Source of the DNA: a virus
Taxonomy: Duplodnaviria > Caudoviricetes
DNA: 64,000 nt
IMG/VR virus record: IMGVR_UViG_3300006930_000001
Location: 11,121 to 75,120 of that record
Direction: 5' to 3' (one strand)
The notes under the pieces are model-generated. The model did not search any database, was not told the origin of the DNA, and saw only the letters and a program-made list of their open reading frames with translations. How positions within the stretch are numbered: the stretch's first letter is position 1; the number at the start of each line of letters is the position of its first letter. Below, piece by piece: positions 32,077 through 62,338 of this stretch. The position numbers and the translations under genes were made by a program.

Positions 32077-32274
32077 ATGGATGGAATAGAACAGATCAGA
32101 TCACTTCTCGAAAGCGATCTTAGATGGTGCCTTATTCATAAAGATGACCTTGATGATGATGGTGATAAGTTTAACAGGGGATACTGTTCAGGGAGAATAG
32201 GGCTGATAAAAGATCTCCTGTCAGAATTGACCGTTATAAAAATGCAAGAAGAGATCAACCATGAATCAAATTAA
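32077..32274 (+). CDS. Hypothetical protein
   Basis: 65-aa ORF. Confidence 0.5.
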   Translation: MDGIEQIRSLLESDLRWCLIHKDDLDDDGDKFNRGYCSGRIGLIKDLLSELTVIKMQEEINHESN

Positions 32275-32662
32275 AAACCTGGTTCTTCTCCTGGCTGTAT
32301 TGCTCGCGTTCTTCAGTTTCGCGATCAGTTATTCAACACTTGAGAACCTGGCCGAGAAAGAGGGAGTTAATCCCTCTGCTCTGTTCCCGTTAATAATTGA
32401 CGGGATAATTATCCTGGCATTAATCTGGAGATTATACGGTCAGAATAAGGACGAAAGTAGGCTTGTGATGGCTGCATATGTGATCTTATCGATTGCGCTT
32501 AATGCAGTCTCACATATGTCTATATTGGGTGCAATCATGGCTGCGGTTGCACCTATTAGCCTGTTCGTGACTTCAGAGATATCAGCGTGCATGATGCGAA
32601 CTAATACGGGTATCAAGAAGAGAGATGAGAAGGGAAGATTTGTAAAACAAACCGAGGCTTAA
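32261..32662 (+). CDS. DUF2637-like multi-pass membrane protein
   Basis: AFFSFAISYSTL, LFPLIIDG, SIALNAVSH, AVAPISLF; paralog of 45059-45724. Confidence 0.65.
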   Translation: MNQIKNLVLLLAVLLAFFSFAISYSTLENLAEKEGVNPSALFPLIIDGIIILALIWRLYGQNKDESRLVMAAYVILSIALNAVSHMSILGAIMAAVAPISLFVTSEISACMMRTNTGIKKRDEKGRFVKQTEA

Positions 32663-34402: not shown

Positions 34403-34564
34403 ATGAAATACTATCTTCTTACCCATACCATTTATTCTTTTGATGCTGATTCTGATGAAGAGGCGATCAAAATATCTGAAGAATCATCTGATATGAATAC
34501 CGAATCTGAATCTTTTATCACTCTAACATCTGAAAACATGAGATTGATAAAAGATTATCAGTGA
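34403..34564 (+). CDS. Small acidic hypothetical protein
   Basis: MKYYLLTHTIYSFDADSDEEAIKI...; last gene of the plus block. Confidence 0.45.
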   Translation: MKYYLLTHTIYSFDADSDEEAIKISEESSDMNTESESFITLTSENMRLIKDYQ

Positions 34565-34662
34565 TATTACATCACTAACCTTTTTTGTGAACATCACTAT
34601 AAACCTCTGGTGATATCACTGACTCTCAACCGACAAAAGGACTCCGGACGGAAGGACACTGG

Positions 34663-34762
34663 TTTTTCGCGGAGCGAAAAATTCAACGGAGTTGAACCGT
34701 AGGCAAGTGGACTGACGGACGGAGTCCGGAAGGTAACGGTGTCCTGACGGACGGAGTCCGTC
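34663..34762 (+). repeat. Four C[GGA]G triloop hairpins, including a 17-bp direct repeat
   Basis: TTTTTCGC-GGA-GCGAAAAA (34663-81), TTCAAC-GGA-GTTGAA (34682-96), CGGAC-GGA-GTCCG (34716-28), GACGGAC-GGA-GTCCGTC (34746-62); CTGACGGACGGAGTCCG at 34712 and 34744. Confidence 0.85.
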
Positions 34763-35031
34763 GCCCGCCAGACATCATTCGAATAAACAAATACGGGTAT
34801 TGGCATTAAATTCTGCGCTCTATACTATGCAAAATTATTCTGGCAGGTTTTTGTTTTCCGGCATTTGCAAATTTTTCAACGACATGCACACAGCGGGCCG
34901 AGGATGGCAAATCACACCTGGCATGGTATGATGTTAGGTCTTGTAGTCTGCCGCTCGACTACGTCTCGCTATGTGCGTGTAAAAATTGAGTGATATCCCA
35001 GGCGTGGTCCGGGCCGCACATGCCGGGTATA

Positions 35032-35053
35032 GTTCCAGTGGAAATGAAGGGGT
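35032..35053 (+). promoter_or_regulatory. Archaeal origin recognition box (ORB)-like element
   Basis: GTTCCAGTGGAAATGAAGGGGT matches the TCCA..GGAAA plus G-string ORB consensus bound by Orc1/Cdc6. Confidence 0.65.
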
Positions 35054-35081
35054 AGAAGTGCAGCATAGTTTGTCGTAGAAA

Positions 35082-35456
35082 TTAGTATTCTTCTTTATGC
35101 TCCATTCTATGACAATTTGCACATAAAATGATACATTTCTTGGCTTCTTGTTCAAGGGAACGCATAGATCGTGTAAATGGTGCCAGACCAAACGATTTTT
35201 CTTCTATATGATGAAAATCGAATACACAACTATTTTCTTCGGTTGCTTTCAATCCACAATTCTTACATTTGGATCCAAGCATCTGTATAAGAATCCATTT
35301 CTTATTCCTGATACGTTCTACACATTTTTGTTTCCTTCCAGGAGAAGAATTGTATTCTTTAATTTTTTCTTTGTTGATTATCCTACGTTGACGGTGATAC
35401 TCTTTTGGATCGTCCTTCACAGATACCGTTATTAACGGATTGCGTGGTTTTACCAT
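35082..35456 (-). CDS. HNH endonuclease
   Basis: CKNC...FDFHH...KKCIILCANCHRMEH. Confidence 0.85.
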   Translation of the reverse strand: MVKPRNPLITVSVKDDPKEYHRQRRIINKEKIKEYNSSPGRKQKCVERIRNKKWILIQMLGSKCKNCGLKATEENSCVFDFHHIEEKSFGLAPFTRSMRSLEQEAKKCIILCANCHRMEHKEEY

Positions 35457-35547: not shown

Positions 35548-36315
35548 TTATTCCTGGAGGAGTATCTCATCTATAGCCCAATCAGGATTATTTATTTTGT
35601 ATATTCGTGCTTCTACGTGGTGGTTTATCGGTTCCGGGAGTTTATTGTATAGTGGCTGGCCATCCTCGCCCACATCTGCAAACCTCATGAATATTGAATC
35701 GTTCCACAAATGCATTGGGATGCCTCCCATATATGTCTCCCAGGATTCTATTTTACGGAATTCTTCTGGCTTTCTTTCAAGATCCCTGCGCCATCGCATC
35801 TGGAAAGTGACATATTTCTTCAGGAATTGCTGATGCTCTACTTCAAGTAAATCGACTTTTGGATTCTCTGGTTCCTGTTCCTTGTCAATAGAATACAATT
35901 TTCTAATAAATGATGCTACTGCAATATTCATATTGATTTTGAACCTATCACCATCAGTATTTTTCCATACCAAACGATTTGCTTTCATAAAATCTACACC
36001 AGAACCAGCAACACCTTCCTCAAGATAGATTGCCATCTCTGCATATGTGAGATATACACCTTCATGATACGGATGTTCTAATATACCTTCTATAGATTCT
36101 ATTGGACGCAATACATCATGCGGTTTTACAATTTTTGAAATACGTCTAAAGACATGAGCATGTATTGTATCATCATAATAATAATCATGGTCCTCTCCAA
36201 ATTCACATTTCTTGATTGCTATTATTTTTGAAGGAACATTTAATCTTCCATTCATGGATCTTTTATTTGCACAAATTAAGAGACAACTTTTACGTGGCAA
36301 AATATCATTCTCCAT
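35548..36315 (-). CDS. Protein with N-terminal AbrB/SpoVT-like domain and unknown C-terminal region
   Basis: Likely start MENDILPRK at 36315; GRLNVPSKII...CEFGEDHDYYYD...HVFRRI. Confidence 0.55.
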   Translation of the reverse strand: MENDILPRKSCLLICANKRSMNGRLNVPSKIIAIKKCEFGEDHDYYYDDTIHAHVFRRISKIVKPHDVLRPIESIEGILEHPYHEGVYLTYAEMAIYLEEGVAGSGVDFMKANRLVWKNTDGDRFKINMNIAVASFIRKLYSIDKEQEPENPKVDLLEVEHQQFLKKYVTFQMRWRRDLERKPEEFRKIESWETYMGGIPMHLWNDSIFMRFADVGEDGQPLYNKLPEPINHHVEARIYKINNPDWAIDEILLQE

Positions 36316-36496
36316 CTTTTGACTGCTGTTTTGAAATTCGCTTGAAGACATGAGCATCCAATTCCTTATCATAATAGTATTCGTGGTCTTCACCAAACTC
36401 ACAACTATGCGCTTTGATAGCATCTGCAGGAACTGTCAATCTTCCAGATTCCCTCGATTTTGCCATCCTTGTCAAAAGCGTTGTTTTACGTGGCAT
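36305..36496 (-). CDS. AbrB/SpoVT-like small DNA-binding protein
   Basis: GRLTVPADAIKAHSCEFGEDHEYYYDKELDAHVFKRI resembles the GRITIP..IR..LGI..GD swapped-hairpin pattern; paralog of the next gene's N-terminus. Confidence 0.55.
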   Translation of the reverse strand: MPRKTTLLTRMAKSRESGRLTVPADAIKAHSCEFGEDHEYYYDKELDAHVFKRISKQQSKDGE

Positions 36497-36553: not shown

Positions 36554-36730
36554 TGCAGTCTCTAACAAAAGGTGCAGTCTGCAACTTTCTATTTGGACTG
36601 CAAGGCTCAATGCTATGATGGTCCGTTGCAGTCTCTAACAAAAGGTGCAGTCTGCAACTTTCTATTTGGACTGCAAGGCTCAATGCTATGATGGTCCGTT
36701 GCAGTCTCTAACAAAAGGTGCAGTCTGCAA
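36554..36730. repeat. Perfect 73-bp tandem repeat (about 2.4 copies)
   Basis: Units start at 36554, 36627 and 36700; each full unit has TGCAGTC twice plus inverted GACTGCA. Confidence 0.95.
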
Positions 36731-37645
36731 AACGGTTGCAGTCCATAACTTTTTACCTCATGCAATCCAATACTATTGTGCAGCGTGTGATCGCCTTCAC
36801 GACTGCATCCATGTAAAATTATTTCCTGCAGCAATACAGGGAATCTCAAAGCCTCTTCGATGCACCAGCCATGTATCGAACACAAATAACCTTTCAGGAG
36901 AAAATAGCCGTTCTCCTGCTTCCAGGGACCACAAATCCCTGGCTACTTTTGATACACATCTTTTCAACAACTCTAAACCATTTGCAGAGCCGCCAGGCGA
37001 TGCTCCATTACCAGAACTATACAAACTGTTTTATTCGTGATCTTTATAACACTAAATATTATAATACTAAATTTTACTCAAGAACTGAACACAGATCGTC
37101 ATATGGACTTTTATTCTTGCTGCTTTTAAATATGCCTAAATTACGCTCTATTTTCCCGGATAATACCCGTAAAATGATATCTCAAAAATGCTAATTCACG
37201 CGTATATAGAATAAGAAATAAAAAAGAGGGTTTCAAAACTACTATCGCGCGAGGGAGGTTAAACACATCTTAAATTGGGCTTATTTTTACGAACGAGGCC
37301 CAACTTATCTATTAGTTTTACATCCATATATAAACTACGTCAAATACTTTCTAACATAAACTAATGCTATTTTGCGTTCAAAAATACCGATTGTGCAACA
37401 ATCATAATATTACTTTAAATATATCCTGGATGTCATTTAGTTGACTCAAACGCTATGCCATTTTACAAAGTAAAACGATCAACCATACCACCCACGATCA
37501 GATCGGCCATTTTTACCCCCCTGGCATTCGTTTGGTGAAAGTTCTGGTAATCGAGCAACCTGGTGGTTGCACCCATTATGCATCGACTTCTGCCCAAACC
37601 AGTATTACGATTATCCAGGTTCGTAATATTATCAAAAAAGATTTA

Positions 37646-44877: not shown

Positions 44878-45114
44878 TTATCTTCCAATCGCCCATGTGC
44901 CATCGATCTTTTTACGGAGAATGTCCGCAGTTCCTTTCAAATGCATGTTCATCTGAATTTCTTTTCCATTTACAACTATAATCCCCCTTACATCGGCTTC
45001 TGCAATGAGATCGATGGTCTTTCTGTCGATAAATGTGCCTTCTGGGTTTCCAATAGCCTTATTCAATTTGTCCGCCTGTATACGGATCACTTTTGCATGT
45101 ATTTCGTCCTTCAT
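44878..45114 (-). CDS. Hypothetical protein
   Basis: Likely start MKDEIHAK. Confidence 0.45.
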   Translation of the reverse strand: MKDEIHAKVIRIQADKLNKAIGNPEGTFIDRKTIDLIAEADVRGIIVVNGKEIQMNMHLKGTADILRKKIDGTWAIGR

Positions 45115-45724
45115 TTCGATACTTCGTAATTGTGGTCCTGCTGATGCCAAGAACTTTTGCTGCCTCGGAGATCGTGCTCTCGGGATTCTCCTCAAAATAT
45201 TCCATGACTTGTCTGAACTTCTCGGGATCGGTTCCCAGGGAAACATGGACCACTTCTGTTTTGGTTACTGGTTCCCCATTGTTCAATACCTCTACAATTT
45301 GTGCAGTTGGCACCTGTTCAATCACCTGTTCAGTGGACAAATCTGACCTGATGCACATCATGAACAGTTCAATACTTACACAAAGGGTTACTGGTGCCAC
45401 CGCATGTGCTGCTTGGCTGATGATATCGGGTGGACTGTGGATGATGTTGAATACCATACTGATCAAGGTGAACACAATTAGAACTGTCCATCCAACCATA
45501 GTAGACTCCATTCTAATGGACGATCTCAATATCATCAGACTACCAGAGATAAGCAGGGCATCAATACAAACAGGCCATAGCCATGATAACCAAGGAATAA
45601 TACCTGCATCAAGTGCTGTTGCCTGCAGGTTAAAAAAACTAAGGAGAAATGAACAGACAGCAATGATCAGTGTTGCCACACCGGTAAGGTTAGGGATGAA
45701 CTGTTCAAACTGTTGCAGGTTCAT
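45059..45724 (-). CDS. DUF2637-like membrane protein with C-terminal HTH
   Basis: SFLLSFFNL, LWPVCIDA, SMVFNIIH, AVAPVTL; C-terminal TISEAAKVLGISRTTITKY. Confidence 0.7.
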   Translation of the reverse strand: MNLQQFEQFIPNLTGVATLIIAVCSFLLSFFNLQATALDAGIIPWLSWLWPVCIDALLISGSLMILRSSIRMESTMVGWTVLIVFTLISMVFNIIHSPPDIISQAAHAVAPVTLCVSIELFMMCIRSDLSTEQVIEQVPTAQIVEVLNNGEPVTKTEVVHVSLGTDPEKFRQVMEYFEENPESTISEAAKVLGISRTTITKYRNEGRNTCKSDPYTGGQIE

Positions 45725-52860: not shown

Positions 52861-54327
52861 ATGTCGTCTAAACTTGACGAAGCAAACCAGTTGTGCGAAG
52901 AAACACTCGGAAAACCATATTTCGAGATATTTGACGACGCAGATTCTTCTGATGCAGAAATAGAAGCAAATATGGTTCTTCTGCGAAAGAAGACAGAATT
53001 TGTTAGTAGAACAAAGTTACCACCAGAACCTGCTGACTCGTATCTTGATTTGTGGCGCAAATATTGGAATTCTATTGTTATACGCCAACCACTTACCTGT
53101 GAAATGTATGCTATGTGCGCAGGTTCACAATTACTCAAACACGTTACCGTTGTGAAGCAGGGAGGTGTAGAAGAAGATATCAGAGTGAATCCATGTATCA
53201 TCATGCCATCAGGAACTGGAAAATCTGAAGGCAATGATATTCTTGCTACATTTGCCAGGCAGATAGGACTTGTATTCACATCGGTTGATAGATATAATGA
53301 TGCAGTTCTTGTAGGATCCGTGATAAAGGCAGCAATCGATTACAATCTAAAAAATAGAAAAAATCCTGGCGATCCTGGATATATGGATCCAGACGAAAAA
53401 GGTATCCTGCGCAAATCACATTTTGTTGTATTTGATGAAGGAGAAAATATTCTAAAGACCAGTAAAGAGACAGAAGGTGCCCAGAGATATCTTCAAAAGG
53501 CAATGAACCGCCATAATTCAGAAGGTAACTATGTATCAAATAACCTGGTCGGATATCAGATAGGAGGCTACCCAGACTGCAGTATAGTGATCACCAGTTA
53601 TTATCTGGAAGAATTTCAAGAAACTCTTCTTGATCGTGGATTGCTCCAGCGTATGGTAGTTTTGATTCAGGAAGAAAACTATGATACAAGAACTGCAATT
53701 ATTGATAGCACTATTGATGGTATACCTACTTATGAGGATATTAAGACCACGAAAGCCAACATCCGTGGATTAAAGAATGCACGCCTGGACCTTATTCAGA
53801 AACTTGTCGATGAGGCAAGGCAGGTAAGGGATTACCACATTGATACAGAATCAATGTCACTCACCAGGGAAGCAAAAGAAATCATGAAATCTGGTGTTAA
53901 TGAATTACGTGAATTAATGCCATTCATGACAGGTCAAAAACAGATCTGGGAATCTATGGTTACTCGTATGGCTATAAATCTCCTTAAAATATCTGCAATT
54001 CATGCAATGGTAAATTACCGGAAATATGTTGATGTTCCTGATGTTCTGTATGCTACAAATATCATGATTCAGACAATGACATCTGTAGGGTTCTTTTTAC
54101 GTGAACACGTTGCAACAGTCAGTGATAGAAAAACTATACAGATACATACATTACTCAAGCGCAAGTATGTTGGTGAATCGTTCCCAAGCATGAAATGGGT
54201 CGCGCTCATAATGGAGGAATTTCATTTCCAGGAGAATAAAGCCAAATATATCATCAAAAACCTTGTGGAGAATGGGAAGTTCAAGGAGATCAAGAAAGAC
54301 GGCAAAAATTGTCTTCTCATTCAGTAA
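52861..54327 (+). CDS. MCM-like AAA+ replicative helicase
   Basis: Walker A PSGTGKS, Walker B VVFDEG, Arg finger RGLLQR, C-terminal winged helix. Confidence 0.7.
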   Translation: MSSKLDEANQLCEETLGKPYFEIFDDADSSDAEIEANMVLLRKKTEFVSRTKLPPEPADSYLDLWRKYWNSIVIRQPLTCEMYAMCAGSQLLKHVTVVKQGGVEEDIRVNPCIIMPSGTGKSEGNDILATFARQIGLVFTSVDRYNDAVLVGSVIKAAIDYNLKNRKNPGDPGYMDPDEKGILRKSHFVVFDEGENILKTSKETEGAQRYLQKAMNRHNSEGNYVSNNLVGYQIGGYPDCSIVITSYYLEEFQETLLDRGLLQRMVVLIQEENYDTRTAIIDSTIDGIPTYEDIKTTKANIRGLKNARLDLIQKLVDEARQVRDYHIDTESMSLTREAKEIMKSGVNELRELMPFMTGQKQIWESMVTRMAINLLKISAIHAMVNYRKYVDVPDVLYATNIMIQTMTSVGFFLREHVATVSDRKTIQIHTLLKRKYVGESFPSMKWVALIMEEFHFQENKAKYIIKNLVENGKFKEIKKDGKNCLLIQ

Positions 54328-57131: not shown

Positions 57132-57265
57132 GTAACGAAACTGTAACCATATCAAAAGAAGAATATGATCGTCTTCTTAAAGCGGAAGAGACCCTTACTG
57201 CACTTGAATCTCATGGTGTTGATAATTGGGATGGATACAGTGATGCTATGGAGGATGTATCATGA
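57128..57265 (+). CDS. 45-aa conserved phage-type protein
   Basis: VTISKEEYDRL...LE..GVDNWDGY pattern; ATGA overlaps. Confidence 0.6.
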   Translation: MSNETVTISKEEYDRLLKAEETLTALESHGVDNWDGYSDAMEDVS

Positions 57266-58119
57266 TAAAGGACCAGTTATATACCGAAAAATACCGTCCA
57301 GGTAAATTTAGTGAGATTGTGGGTCTCACAGTCGATCTCACGAAACTTGATAGTTTACCAAACCTTCTCCTGGCAGGAAGATGTGGTATTGGAAAGACTA
57401 CGCTTGCAAAAGTGATTGCAAAGGAATACAATTGTGATGTGCTCTACCTGAATGCATCTGATGAACGTGGAATTGATATGATACGTGGAAAGGTGAAGGA
57501 ATTTGCATCCACGATGTCTATCAACAAACGTGTCAAATTGGTTCACTTTGATGAGGCCGATGGTCTGACATTCGATGCACAGAATACCCTGCGTAATATC
57601 ATGGAAGAGTATTCCAACAATACCAGGTTTGTGTTCACCTGTAACAATGTCGCAAAGATCATTGAACCAATCCGGTCCAGGTGCATGGAGATCAATCTTG
57701 CCACGCCACCAATGCCGGACATCGAGGTTTACCTGGCACGCATCATAGGGGCTGAAAATATCCCGATCCCTGCACAAGACGTATCAAACATCATCTCGAT
57801 CAATTACCCGGATATACGTAGCATGGTGAACGCACTACAACACTACGCTATGTTTGGATCGGTCCCATCGAGCAATCATACTCTTGCCAATGATATCCTC
57901 GGTTTTGTAAGGTCAGGTAAGTTTCTGGATGCAAGAAAACAATGGATCGCTGCAGCACCAGATTACAAGAACCTCCTGGTGGACATGACTGATCTGATGA
58001 CAGATACGGAGATCGAGAAATGGGTAATCACCATTGCCAAATACTCGTATGAGATGTCGATTGGAGCATTTCCGGAGATATCGTTCGCAGCATGCATTAA
58101 AACAATGTGTGACAAATGA
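57262..58119 (+). CDS. rfcS: Replication factor C small subunit (clamp loader)
   Basis: EKYRP, GRCGIGKTT, LNASDERGID, DEAD, PIRSRC. Confidence 0.93.
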   Translation: MIKDQLYTEKYRPGKFSEIVGLTVDLTKLDSLPNLLLAGRCGIGKTTLAKVIAKEYNCDVLYLNASDERGIDMIRGKVKEFASTMSINKRVKLVHFDEADGLTFDAQNTLRNIMEEYSNNTRFVFTCNNVAKIIEPIRSRCMEINLATPPMPDIEVYLARIIGAENIPIPAQDVSNIISINYPDIRSMVNALQHYAMFGSVPSSNHTLANDILGFVRSGKFLDARKQWIAAAPDYKNLLVDMTDLMTDTEIEKWVITIAKYSYEMSIGAFPEISFAACIKTMCDK

Positions 58120-59585: not shown

Positions 59586-59775
59586 AAAACATTGCAAAGT
59601 CTGCAGTTATCAAAGAATTCACACGAAGAGGCATGACTATGGAACGATCTGGAGAAAGCATCGTATTGTCAGGAGATCTTGGCACTGTTGAGATCGAAGA
59701 AAGTAATGGCATGCTTATTATTTCGTTCTCTTGATACCACTATTTTTATTAACTTATACCGATAAACTATACTGT

Positions 59776-60108
59776 ATGCAAGAAGCATTACAGGACCTTG
59801 GGTTCACGAAAAATGAATCATTGGTAATAGCATTTTTTGCAAATACCAAAGAAGCAGATCAACGTGATATCGAAATTGCATGTGGTATCAGGCAATCTGA
59901 AGTAAGTGTTGTTATGAAATCTCTAAAGGCAAGAGGCATAATAACATATCATGAGGTTAGCGATGGAAGAGCAGCAAGACCAAAGAAGATCTATTCAATG
60001 ATTCGGCACATGGTTACGCACAATCTTGAAAAAAAGATAGAAGCGGAATATGATGCAAGAATGAATGCACTTGATAACGTCAGGAGAATCCTGAATGATA
60101 ATATTTGA
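59776..60108 (+). CDS. TrmB-like winged-helix transcription regulator
   Basis: LQDLGFTKNES...DIEIACGIRQSEVSVVMKSL..RG; likely start MQEAL. Confidence 0.75.
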   Translation: MQEALQDLGFTKNESLVIAFFANTKEADQRDIEIACGIRQSEVSVVMKSLKARGIITYHEVSDGRAARPKKIYSMIRHMVTHNLEKKIEAEYDARMNALDNVRRILNDNI

Positions 60109-62338
60109 GGCCGTTGGTCCAGATATTGTTATACGTGGAAGGCACCCAGACAATAAACGGTATGTTGAAAGAAGAAAGTATCGTCCTTATTTCTATGCAG
60201 AGGATCCAACCGGGGAATACACCAGCCTTTTTGGTGATAAATTAAAGAAGGTAATCGTTTATCATCCTTCCCAGGTAAAGACAGAACGTGTAAATTACAA
60301 AAAGACCTTTGAATCAGATGTAGTTTACATCAATCGCTACATGATCGATAATCTGGTTGAAATTCCCCAGGAACCTATCAGACTTGCATTTATCGATATC
60401 GAAGTAGATGATGAAGGATCTAATCCAGATATCGCAAAAGCAGACAAAATGATTACTGCTATATGCGTAAATGATTCTTTTACCGGAAAATATCATTGCT
60501 TCGCTTTACGTCCACCTACATTTCCGGGATCTGATGAAACGATCAAAGGAGATACTGTAAACAGGTATATTTTCAATAATGAAGAAGATATGCTTGAAAA
60601 ATTTATCAAATTTGTAGAAGTGTTTGATTTTGATCTTTTCTGGGCATGGAATGGAGATGAATTCGATTTTCCGTATATATTCAGACGATTGAAGGATTCC
60701 AAGAAATTATCACCGATGGGAGACGTTGATAACCGAACAGGGTATCCCAAGGGTAGGGTCTGGCTGGATTTGATGTGGGCATATGACAAAATGCAAACAT
60801 CCGAACTGGATTCAAAAGGATTGGATTACTGTGCAAAGCGTGAAGGTCTTGTAGGTAAACTGGAACATGATGGCAATGTTTCCCATTTGTGGAAAACTGA
60901 CTTCAACAAATTCATGGAATACAATATCCATGATGTTGAACTGATGGTAAACATTGAGAAAGCCAGGGGCATCACAAATTACTACGATGCTGTGAGAAGG
61001 ATGACCTATTGTTACTGGTATGACATCAGGCATAACAGTAGAGTCCTTGATTTCTATTACCTGAAGAAGGCACATGAGAAAAAGATTGTATTACCAAACC
61101 ACGGTAGTGGAATTCAATGGGAGCCTATAGAAGGTGCCAGAGTTCTTGATCCGATACCAGGTATGCATTACATGGTGGCAGGGGCAGATGTGAGGTCTCT
61201 GTATCCGTCTGCAATCAAATTGGGTAACATGAGTCCCGAGACTCTTGATCCGAATGGCACAATCAAAATAGGTCCTGCAACCTTTAGAGCAGATATCCGA
61301 GGATTCTTGCCACAAGTGGTCGATGAACTATGGGATTATCGTCAGGCTCTCAAGAAAAGGATGAAAGAATATCCAGAAGAATCTCCTGAACATCAACGCC
61401 TGGACGATACACAGACAGTTACCAAATTCTTATTAAATTCGGTATATGGTCTATTACTCATGCCAAAAGCAAGATTGGCGGTCAGGGACATCGGTGCGGC
61501 AGTCACTTACTTTGGGAGAATGTTTAACCAATATATGGAACAGGTAGTCCTATCATTTGGTGTTGAAGTTGTAGCAGGTGATACAGATTCTATTATGTTC
61601 AAAGTAGAATCTCCAGAACATGCAAAAACAATCGTAGATGCCATCAATGCAGGTATCCCAAAATTCATTGAGGATAATTTTGGCGATCCACGGTATAATA
61701 TCGTATATGTGGAATTTGAGAAGATTTATCTACGTGCTTTCTTCTTGGGAGATGAGGATGGTGGATCTGTAAAGAAACGGTATGCAGGTCTCATATATTA
61801 TAAGGACGGCCATATCCTTGATAAACCAGTCATAGATATCAAAGGATTCGAAGCCAAGCGATCTGATACTCCTGGATTCATTAAGGACCTTCAAAAAGAA
61901 GTTCTGGTAAATATACTTGATGAAGTTAGCCGAAAAGAGATCGTGGGTAAGATTGCTGCAGTAAAAGCAGATATACTCAATGGAATATACACTGGAGATA
62001 ACCTGGGAATACCAAAGGGTATTAGCAGAAACCTGCATGAGTATGAACGGTCTATACCTGCCCAGGTTACTGGTGCTATTTATTCCAACACTTACCTTGG
62101 CACAAATATTAAACGGACGAAGGTAAAATACATATATGTTTCAGGAGTTCCAGATGGACTTCCAAAAACGCATGTAATATCCTTCGTTGATAAAATGCCA
62201 CCAGGATTCACAATCGATTATGAAAAGATGGCAGAAACACTGGTTACATCTAAATTTGGGAATATATTTGCGTCAATGGGATGGGATCTGGTAGAACTTG
62301 AAGGATTTACTCAGGTAAAAGGTGGTGCATTTTGGTAA
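60095..62338 (+). CDS. polB: Family B DNA polymerase
   Basis: Exonuclease FIDIE/WNG..FD/YN..D; polymerase D..SLYPS, K..LNS.YG, GDTDS, KKRY. Confidence 0.97.
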   Translation: MIIFEAVGPDIVIRGRHPDNKRYVERRKYRPYFYAEDPTGEYTSLFGDKLKKVIVYHPSQVKTERVNYKKTFESDVVYINRYMIDNLVEIPQEPIRLAFIDIEVDDEGSNPDIAKADKMITAICVNDSFTGKYHCFALRPPTFPGSDETIKGDTVNRYIFNNEEDMLEKFIKFVEVFDFDLFWAWNGDEFDFPYIFRRLKDSKKLSPMGDVDNRTGYPKGRVWLDLMWAYDKMQTSELDSKGLDYCAKREGLVGKLEHDGNVSHLWKTDFNKFMEYNIHDVELMVNIEKARGITNYYDAVRRMTYCYWYDIRHNSRVLDFYYLKKAHEKKIVLPNHGSGIQWEPIEGARVLDPIPGMHYMVAGADVRSLYPSAIKLGNMSPETLDPNGTIKIGPATFRADIRGFLPQVVDELWDYRQALKKRMKEYPEESPEHQRLDDTQTVTKFLLNSVYGLLLMPKARLAVRDIGAAVTYFGRMFNQYMEQVVLSFGVEVVAGDTDSIMFKVESPEHAKTIVDAINAGIPKFIEDNFGDPRYNIVYVEFEKIYLRAFFLGDEDGGSVKKRYAGLIYYKDGHILDKPVIDIKGFEAKRSDTPGFIKDLQKEVLVNILDEVSRKEIVGKIAAVKADILNGIYTGDNLGIPKGISRNLHEYERSIPAQVTGAIYSNTYLGTNIKRTKVKYIYVSGVPDGLPKTHVISFVDKMPPGFTIDYEKMAETLVTSKFGNIFASMGWDLVELEGFTQVKGGAFW

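Follow-up and report, generated by a model that had tools for sequence, protein, structure and literature searches.

A solitary consensus origin recognition box in a tailed-virus genome that encodes no Orc1/Cdc6

The box region and the viral replication genes

We analyzed a stretch of 64,000 nucleotides, hereafter the window, that comprises bases 11121-75120 of an IMG/VR virus record. The record is 75,120 bp long, carries direct terminal repeats that we measured at 110 bp, and is rated 100% complete. In the window, two convergent gene blocks are separated by a non-coding, ORF-poor gap of 517 bp (34565..35081), bounded on one side by a + strand ORF ending at 34564 and on the other by a - strand HNH endonuclease gene. 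Within this gap, at 35032..35053 on the + strand, lies the 22-mer GTTCCAGTGGAAATGAAGGGGT, which has the form of an archaeal origin recognition box (ORB). It is composed of a TCCAGTGGA dyad core inside TTCCAGTGGAAA, a 4-nt spacer and a GGGG G-string, and it is presumed to be a site for the Orc1/Cdc6 initiator of the host. A preliminary description of this DNA had placed the box in non-coding sequence beside hairpins, in agreement with the gap delimited here and with a hairpin element that lies about 270 bp from the box.

The sequence from 34600 to 35060 is GC-rich for this genome (0.47-0.63 vs 0.40). A GC-rich nested hairpin element (34631..34763), located to the dyad side, consists of a long outer stem around small hairpins and holds a 17-nt direct repeat, CTGACGGACGGAGTCCG. 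The element is predicted to be stable both as single-stranded DNA (dG -33.4, z -3.7) and as RNA (z -3.5); the RNA fold of the segment containing the box is not especially stable (z -0.18 for the + strand and -2.4 for the - strand). Searches of the gap for tRNAs and known RNA families (Rfam) found none. Terminator-like T-runs occur at 34582-34588 on the + strand and at 34981-34985 on the - strand, and the dyad side of the box appears to be an untranscribed zone bearing the structured hairpin element.

On the other side of the box, the HNH endonuclease gene (35082..35456, - strand) is free-standing and of the mobile type. It is the last gene of the - strand block, and 29 nt separate its stop codon from the box. 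Next comes a 291-aa ORFan (35548..36423, - strand) whose only match among 5.8 billion proteins is itself. Directly upstream of the ORFan is a partial paralogue (57 aa, 56% identity) that overlaps a small ORF at 36305-36496, an arrangement that points to local tandem duplication. Elsewhere in the window, at 32261-32662 and 45059-45724, the virus encodes two proteins with a DUF2637 membrane domain, which in the second is joined to an HTH; such proteins are an unusual finding in an archaeal virus.

The gap is not only the convergence point of the two gene blocks but also a local maximum of cumulative GC skew, a terminus-like position. GC skew had been proposed as a check on the position of the origin. 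While the gap can be placed on the skew curve, the skew is uninformative as to where replication starts because it tracks the coding strand. The position of the box could also be taken to suggest that tightly bound Orc1 acts as a barrier or insulator where opposed transcription arms, and possibly replication arms, meet, limiting read-through and collisions or helping forks to terminate. Such a role would fit a box that sits between convergent gene blocks and terminator-like T-runs, beside stable hairpins and at a skew maximum. We regard it as unlikely. The skew simply follows the coding strand, HNH transcripts probably cross the box, since the - strand T-run is located past it, and we know of no barrier role for archaeal Orc1-ORB complexes.

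A second candidate element lies 1.5 kb away, separated from the box by only the HNH gene and the ORFan. This is an iteron array (36554..36807) of 10 TGCAGTC heptamers in both orientations, which includes a perfect 73-bp tandem repeat of 2.4 copies (36554-36730); in the window as a whole, the heptamer occurs 22 times vs 7.3 expected. The array adjoins the largest AT-rich non-coding stretch of the genome (37041..37645; 605 bp, 34% GC), a candidate unwinding region. Judged by their sequence, the array and the AT-rich stretch together are a candidate iteron-type origin or partition site, either a rival or a partner to the box. It is the G-string side of the box, not the dyad side, that is turned toward the iterons and the AT-rich region, and the distance between box and iterons may have been smaller in the past. 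No Rep-type iteron-binding protein was recognized among the viral proteins, where the only candidates are the probable SF3 helicase described below and unannotated proteins.

The preliminary description had noted that no Orc1/Cdc6 gene is present in the window, and we found that this extends to the entire 75,120-bp genome: TIGR02928 gave 0 matches, and PF09079 gave only a 15.6-bit, sub-threshold match in a winged helix-turn-helix (wHTH) protein. MCM (PF00493) is also absent from the complete genome. The replication genes that the virus does carry encode a probable SF3 (D5/DUF3987-type) helicase of a primase-helicase family (52861..54327, + strand), an RFC small-subunit-like clamp-loader ATPase (57262..58119, + strand) and a family B DNA polymerase (PolB; 60095..62338, + strand), the last of which is nearest to those of haloarchaeal tailed viruses, at 28%. 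A dCTP deaminase is also encoded. We considered the RFC-like AAA+ protein as a possible Orc1/Cdc6 and rejected it, as it has neither the Cdc6 lid nor a winged-helix domain. A search for signs of a temperate lifestyle found no tyrosine integrase in the virus.

Immediately upstream of PolB is the gene for the wHTH protein mentioned above, a 125-aa member of the MreA family (59731..60108; NCBIfam, 9.5e-23). Homologues with ~36% identity to it occur in nearly all genomes of Methanosarcinaceae and Methanomicrobiales, with counts of 115/121 and 96/121 in the methanogen genomes that we searched. A virus-encoded DNA-binding protein such as this one might read the box instead of host Orc1, and the protein belongs to the replication module and has a weak match to the Cdc6_C winged helix (E 8e-4). 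We nevertheless rejected it as a Cdc6-type protein, given its far better matches to MreA, TrmB and MarR. Its cellular homologues are ordinary regulators, and the identity of the box to the cellular consensus, described below, is most simply explained by a cellular reader. A viral reader of the box therefore seems very improbable to us.

Comparison with cellular boxes and origins

We asked how closely the viral box resembles those of cellular archaea and whether it recurs in the virus. The 22-mer is the only match in the window at <=3 mismatches, with 0 matches in 100 shuffles, and its 12-nt core occurs a single time in the whole 75,120-bp genome. A position weight matrix (PWM) built from 215 cellular boxes gave the viral box a score of 35.5 bits, with the consensus base at all informative positions. 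By the same matrix, there is no second ORB or mini-ORB in the whole genome, and none in the gap; the runner-up, at 6.9 bits, scores no higher than shuffled sequence can (max 10.3). These scores uphold the earlier statement that only one full box is present. The runner-up is a mini-ORB-like sequence without a G-string, GTTCCATTGGAAAC, located outside the window near the left terminus (genome 744-771).

In its details, too, the box is of the common cellular type. The dyad core TCCA-N-TGGA within TTCCAGTGGAAA is exact at 12/12 positions, and of the listed cellular boxes, more (57/127) share its combination of the 4-nt spacer TGAA and a following GGGGT than have any other variant. The archaeal ORB consensus of Pelve et al., as tabulated in a published comparison (PMC4153887), has the same form as the viral box, and the 23-mer consensus given there for Methanomassiliicoccales differs from the viral 23-mer by 1 base. 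One of the boxes in that table, ORB3 of 'Ca. Methanomassiliicoccus intestinalis', is identical to the viral 22-mer.

We then used a 20-mer of four-fold degeneracy to survey prokaryotic genomes, each species being represented by one. The survey recovered at least 120 loci, vs about 4 expected by our estimate, and nearly all of them are archaeal and come from many phyla. The full viral 22-mer is identical in at least 18 boxes (18/127 among the matches listed), which are likewise spread over many archaeal phyla and several of which lie beside orc1/cdc6. Linkage to the initiator gene was assessed by tblastn with one Orc1/Cdc6 protein (Pfam-verified, from locus L073) in loci of 8 kb or less. The gene is present in 53 of the 120 listed loci, at a median distance of 328 bp from the box, which indicates that boxes of this kind mark oriC. 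Two or more boxes are found in 67/120 of the listed loci, and 41/120 have one box and no orc1 in view. The description of the 22-mer as a close match to the archaeal ORB, and the comparison with cellular ORBs that had been suggested as a check on it, are thus both answered by agreement: the box has the pan-archaeal consensus base at every informative position, and it is identical both to the published ORB3 and to listed cellular boxes, including some adjacent to orc1/cdc6.

Three of the loci that carry archaeal consensus ORBs come from contigs binned as Lachnospiraceae, Eggerthellaceae and Omnitrophota (L027, L043 and L049, the first of which has an inverted pair). These are probably mis-binned contigs of archaea or archaeal viruses.

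Boxes of this type are sparse even in genomes that use them. In five named methanogen genomes we found 3-8 boxes each per 1.7-4.6 Mb, and a reversed-pattern control gave 0; one box in 75 kb is therefore not background. The viral box is almost certainly not a product of chance. Viral-type boxes are present in all named candidate hosts examined.

The resemblance to cellular origins does not extend beyond the box. With oriC1-type origins, the virus shares the dyad core, the spacer length and the G-string (PMC4153887). [quoted passage not shown] Among the matches listed, the 300 bp on the dyad side of boxes in orc1-linked, multi-box loci are AT-richer than the locus in 96% of cases, by a mean GC difference of -0.082, and inverted pairs enclose AT-rich DNA and have their dyads facing inward rather than outward in 25 vs 6 cases. 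The dyad side of the viral box departs from its genome in the opposite direction, by +0.093 over 300 bp and +0.149 over 100 bp. The setting of the viral box is not that of a canonical origin: the partner box, the AT-rich dyad side and the adjacent orc1/cdc6 are all absent.

Solitary ORBs do occur in cells. ORB3 of 'Ca. M. intestinalis' lies downstream of ftsZ, and no other ORB is associated with it (PMC4153887). This box and one in Methanoculleus methanifontis resemble that of the virus in being single consensus boxes without a partner, but they reside in genomes that encode the reader, and some solitary boxes are within a few kb of a main box cluster. In M. methanifontis, the consensus ORB (L066 2876-2895) is 6 nt upstream of the start of an ORF for a Hel308-type helicase and 5-9 kb from the main ORB cluster of the genome, and Orc1 might regulate a repair helicase in this organism.

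Relatives, host and other viral genomes with boxes

A box identical to cellular ones could have been acquired from a cell. We considered a neutral origin of this kind, in which recombination with a host origin or a mobile element, perhaps together with the adjacent HNH gene, left a functionless box behind. Compatible with this idea, the box is absent from relatives of the virus and from ANMV-1, and it lies in a variable, ORFan-rich region beside a mobile-type HNH gene, in a gap of atypical, GC-rich composition. A captured fragment, however, should bring its flanks. In a search of 351 Halobacteriota genomes, identity ended within 5 nt of the box, and the longest alignment to the 120 listed oriC-type loci and 14 viral loci was 39 nt. 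Because identity is limited to the box and the flanks are absent, we ruled out the recent capture of a stretch of host DNA. A joint arrival of box and HNH gene is similarly unsupported, as homologues of this gene and of the neighboring genes are absent from every ORB-bearing contig that we fetched. Finally, an unselected 22-mer would drift from the consensus, from which the viral box does not depart at any informative position. The box looks like a maintained motif rather than a captured fragment and is probably not a relic; we give a functionless relic only a minor share of the probability.

We looked for the box in related viruses. The nearest relatives by large terminase (TerL; 77% and 68%) are short fragments. 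A further relative (G002, TerL 49%) shares the packaging, replication and morphogenesis modules, and its contig ends where the box region would begin. No ORB outside coding sequence was found in this relative (75% complete) or in two others (G008, 100% complete; G010, 84% complete), and none was found in ANMV-1, the best named TerL match (35%). The two proteins flanking the gap have no relatives on viral contigs, and a metagenome scan anchored on the twin hairpin returned only a chance match in a high-GC bacterial contig. As none of the close relatives extends over the box region, selection on the box is putative.

The host is probably a methanogen or an ANME-type member of the Halobacteriota. 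TerL relatives at ~40% identity were found in 6/351 Halobacteriota genomes and 0/301 Thermoplasmatota genomes, and 4 of these 6 Halobacteriota genomes have a divergent McrA. In these four (G025, G085, G117 and G362; loci L177-L180), McrA scored about 140-150 bits vs about 228 for classical methanogens, which hints that kin of the virus infect ANME-1 or alkane-oxidizer-like archaea. The MreA-like gene is equally similar to its homologues in Methanosarcinaceae and Methanomicrobiales and hence does not discriminate between these two groups. No spacer-like match to the 30-50 kb section of the window was found in 121 Methanosarcinaceae genomes.

A degenerate ORB scan of IMG/VR returned 14 contigs, and the boxes on several of them are in surroundings reminiscent of origins. 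One fragment of a tailed virus, on which a Terminase_6N gene but no orc1 is seen (L003, 1718-2095; near-identical to L004), has an inverted pair of ORBs with the G-strings outward and about 330 bp of 27-28% GC between them, which from its sequence would be a textbook archaeal origin layout. A complete genome of 63 kb with direct terminal repeats (DTR; G666, L157 2650-2800) has one ORB-type box whose dyad side is very AT-rich over ~130 bp. In a second complete DTR genome, of 12.6 kb (G668, L162 730-1150), the box lies beside a CAGTGACA iteron field with long G-strings, and a terminase-like gene follows shortly downstream. Orc1/Cdc6, PolB, a homologue of the present virus's helicase and any MCM match above threshold are absent from both complete genomes.

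These viral records are like the present virus in having a host-type box and no Orc1/Cdc6 or MCM. They differ from it in that their boxes adjoin very AT-rich DNA, iterons or a partner box, whereas the box of the present virus is in a GC-rich context; moreover, G666 and G668 lack PolB and the helicase homologue, whereas the present virus has its own replisome. The present virus is thus set apart by its lone perfect box, the GC-rich setting and the virus-encoded replisome.

In the literature searchable here, we found no published description of ORBs in Orc1-less viral genomes; one preprint sought ORBs in a virus and found none. Several archaeal viruses use the Orc1/Cdc6 system by supplying the protein. 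ORF16 of BJ1 is a virus-encoded Orc1/Cdc6 (PMC2194725), MSTV1 encodes its own, tied to a lysogeny switch (PMC12134362), and so do SNJ2 and Tebi-SV1, with a tie to the lysogeny switch in SNJ2 (PMC13612827). The present virus, by comparison, supplies only the DNA site.

A possible role for the box in viral replication

We sought an explanation that accounts for a perfect host-type site in a virus that has no gene for the corresponding protein. Two putative roles had been offered in the preliminary description, the recruitment of host Orc1/Cdc6 for MCM loading and a decoy for host initiators; the layout around the box is unlike that of a classical origin. From its sequence, the box is most likely read by host Orc1/Cdc6. 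The reading that we favor, tentatively and at somewhat less than even confidence, is that the box is a genuine high-affinity docking site for this initiator that assists the initiation of viral replication. The virus would keep the box in its main non-coding control region (34.6-37.6 kb), a composite of hairpins, box, iterons and AT-rich tract, and through it the host initiator would be drawn into starting viral replication. Once bound, Orc1 would deform the DNA and bring in a helicase, either host MCM or the viral SF3 enzyme, toward the dyad side, that is, toward the untranscribed, hairpin-bearing part of the gap. The box would then be auxiliary to an origin of the virus's own, formed by the iterons and the AT-rich region at a distance of 1.5 kb. 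In this scheme, the binding of Orc1, the recruitment of a helicase and any link to the iteron region are steps that we infer.

The other Orc1-less viral genomes lend this reading some support, as L003, G666 and G668 appear to hold their boxes in origin-like settings. G666 and G668 are nonetheless poor precedents because they are without PolB and the helicase of the present virus. Against an assisting role, a virus that encodes PolB, an RFC-like protein and a probable SF3 helicase of its own may be able to do without MCM.

A design of this kind is familiar from bacteria, where DnaA boxes assist the iteron origins of plasmids and of phage P1. In the proposed viral arrangement, too, iterons specific to the element and an AT-rich region would be combined with a site to which the host initiator binds. 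The analogy has its limits: DnaA boxes lie within the origin, whereas two genes and 1.5 kb separate the viral box from the iterons, and the DnaA system belongs to another domain of life, where neither the box nor the fold context of the initiator is related to the archaeal one.

The box could instead serve the virus without any function at an origin. As viral genomes multiply, hundreds of boxes might soak up host Orc1/Cdc6, blocking host initiation and freeing nucleotides and replisome parts, or might couple the virus to the host cell cycle. A solitary site of maximal strength, with neither DUE nor partner, is what a binding sink needs, and a virus with its own replisome gains from host shutdown. 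Orc1/Cdc6 can be rate-limiting, and Haloarcula hispanica is intolerant of extra, plasmid-borne oriC2 (reviewed in PMC5333045). On the other hand, selection for titration should favor arrays, so that one box per genome is a weak sink; nothing here indicates host shut-off, and the other viral ORBs are in origin-like contexts. We judge titration to be possible but improbable, on a par with a functionless box.

Docking of the host initiator and the viral iteron origin might also represent two separate initiation systems. The lone ORB would direct host Orc1 and MCM to fire once per cell cycle and maintain a carrier state, and the iteron origin, together with the viral helicase, RFC-like protein and PolB, would drive a lytic burst. 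The arrangement would correspond, in archaea, to the division of labor between oriP and oriLyt of herpesviruses; we think it unlikely.

Almost nothing is known of how replication starts in archaeal tailed viruses. A virus that brings the DNA side of the Orc1/ORB system and not the protein would demonstrate that archaeal viruses exploit the host's eukaryote-like initiator, in parallel with the use of DnaA by bacterial plasmids and phages. As polymerase, clamp loader and helicase are all supplied by the virus itself, the single 22-mer is a simple handle on what Orc1 does for it, be it initiation, timing or as the target of host shut-off. More generally, ORBs in Orc1-less viral genomes could serve as a sequence marker for archaeal hosts and for viral origins.
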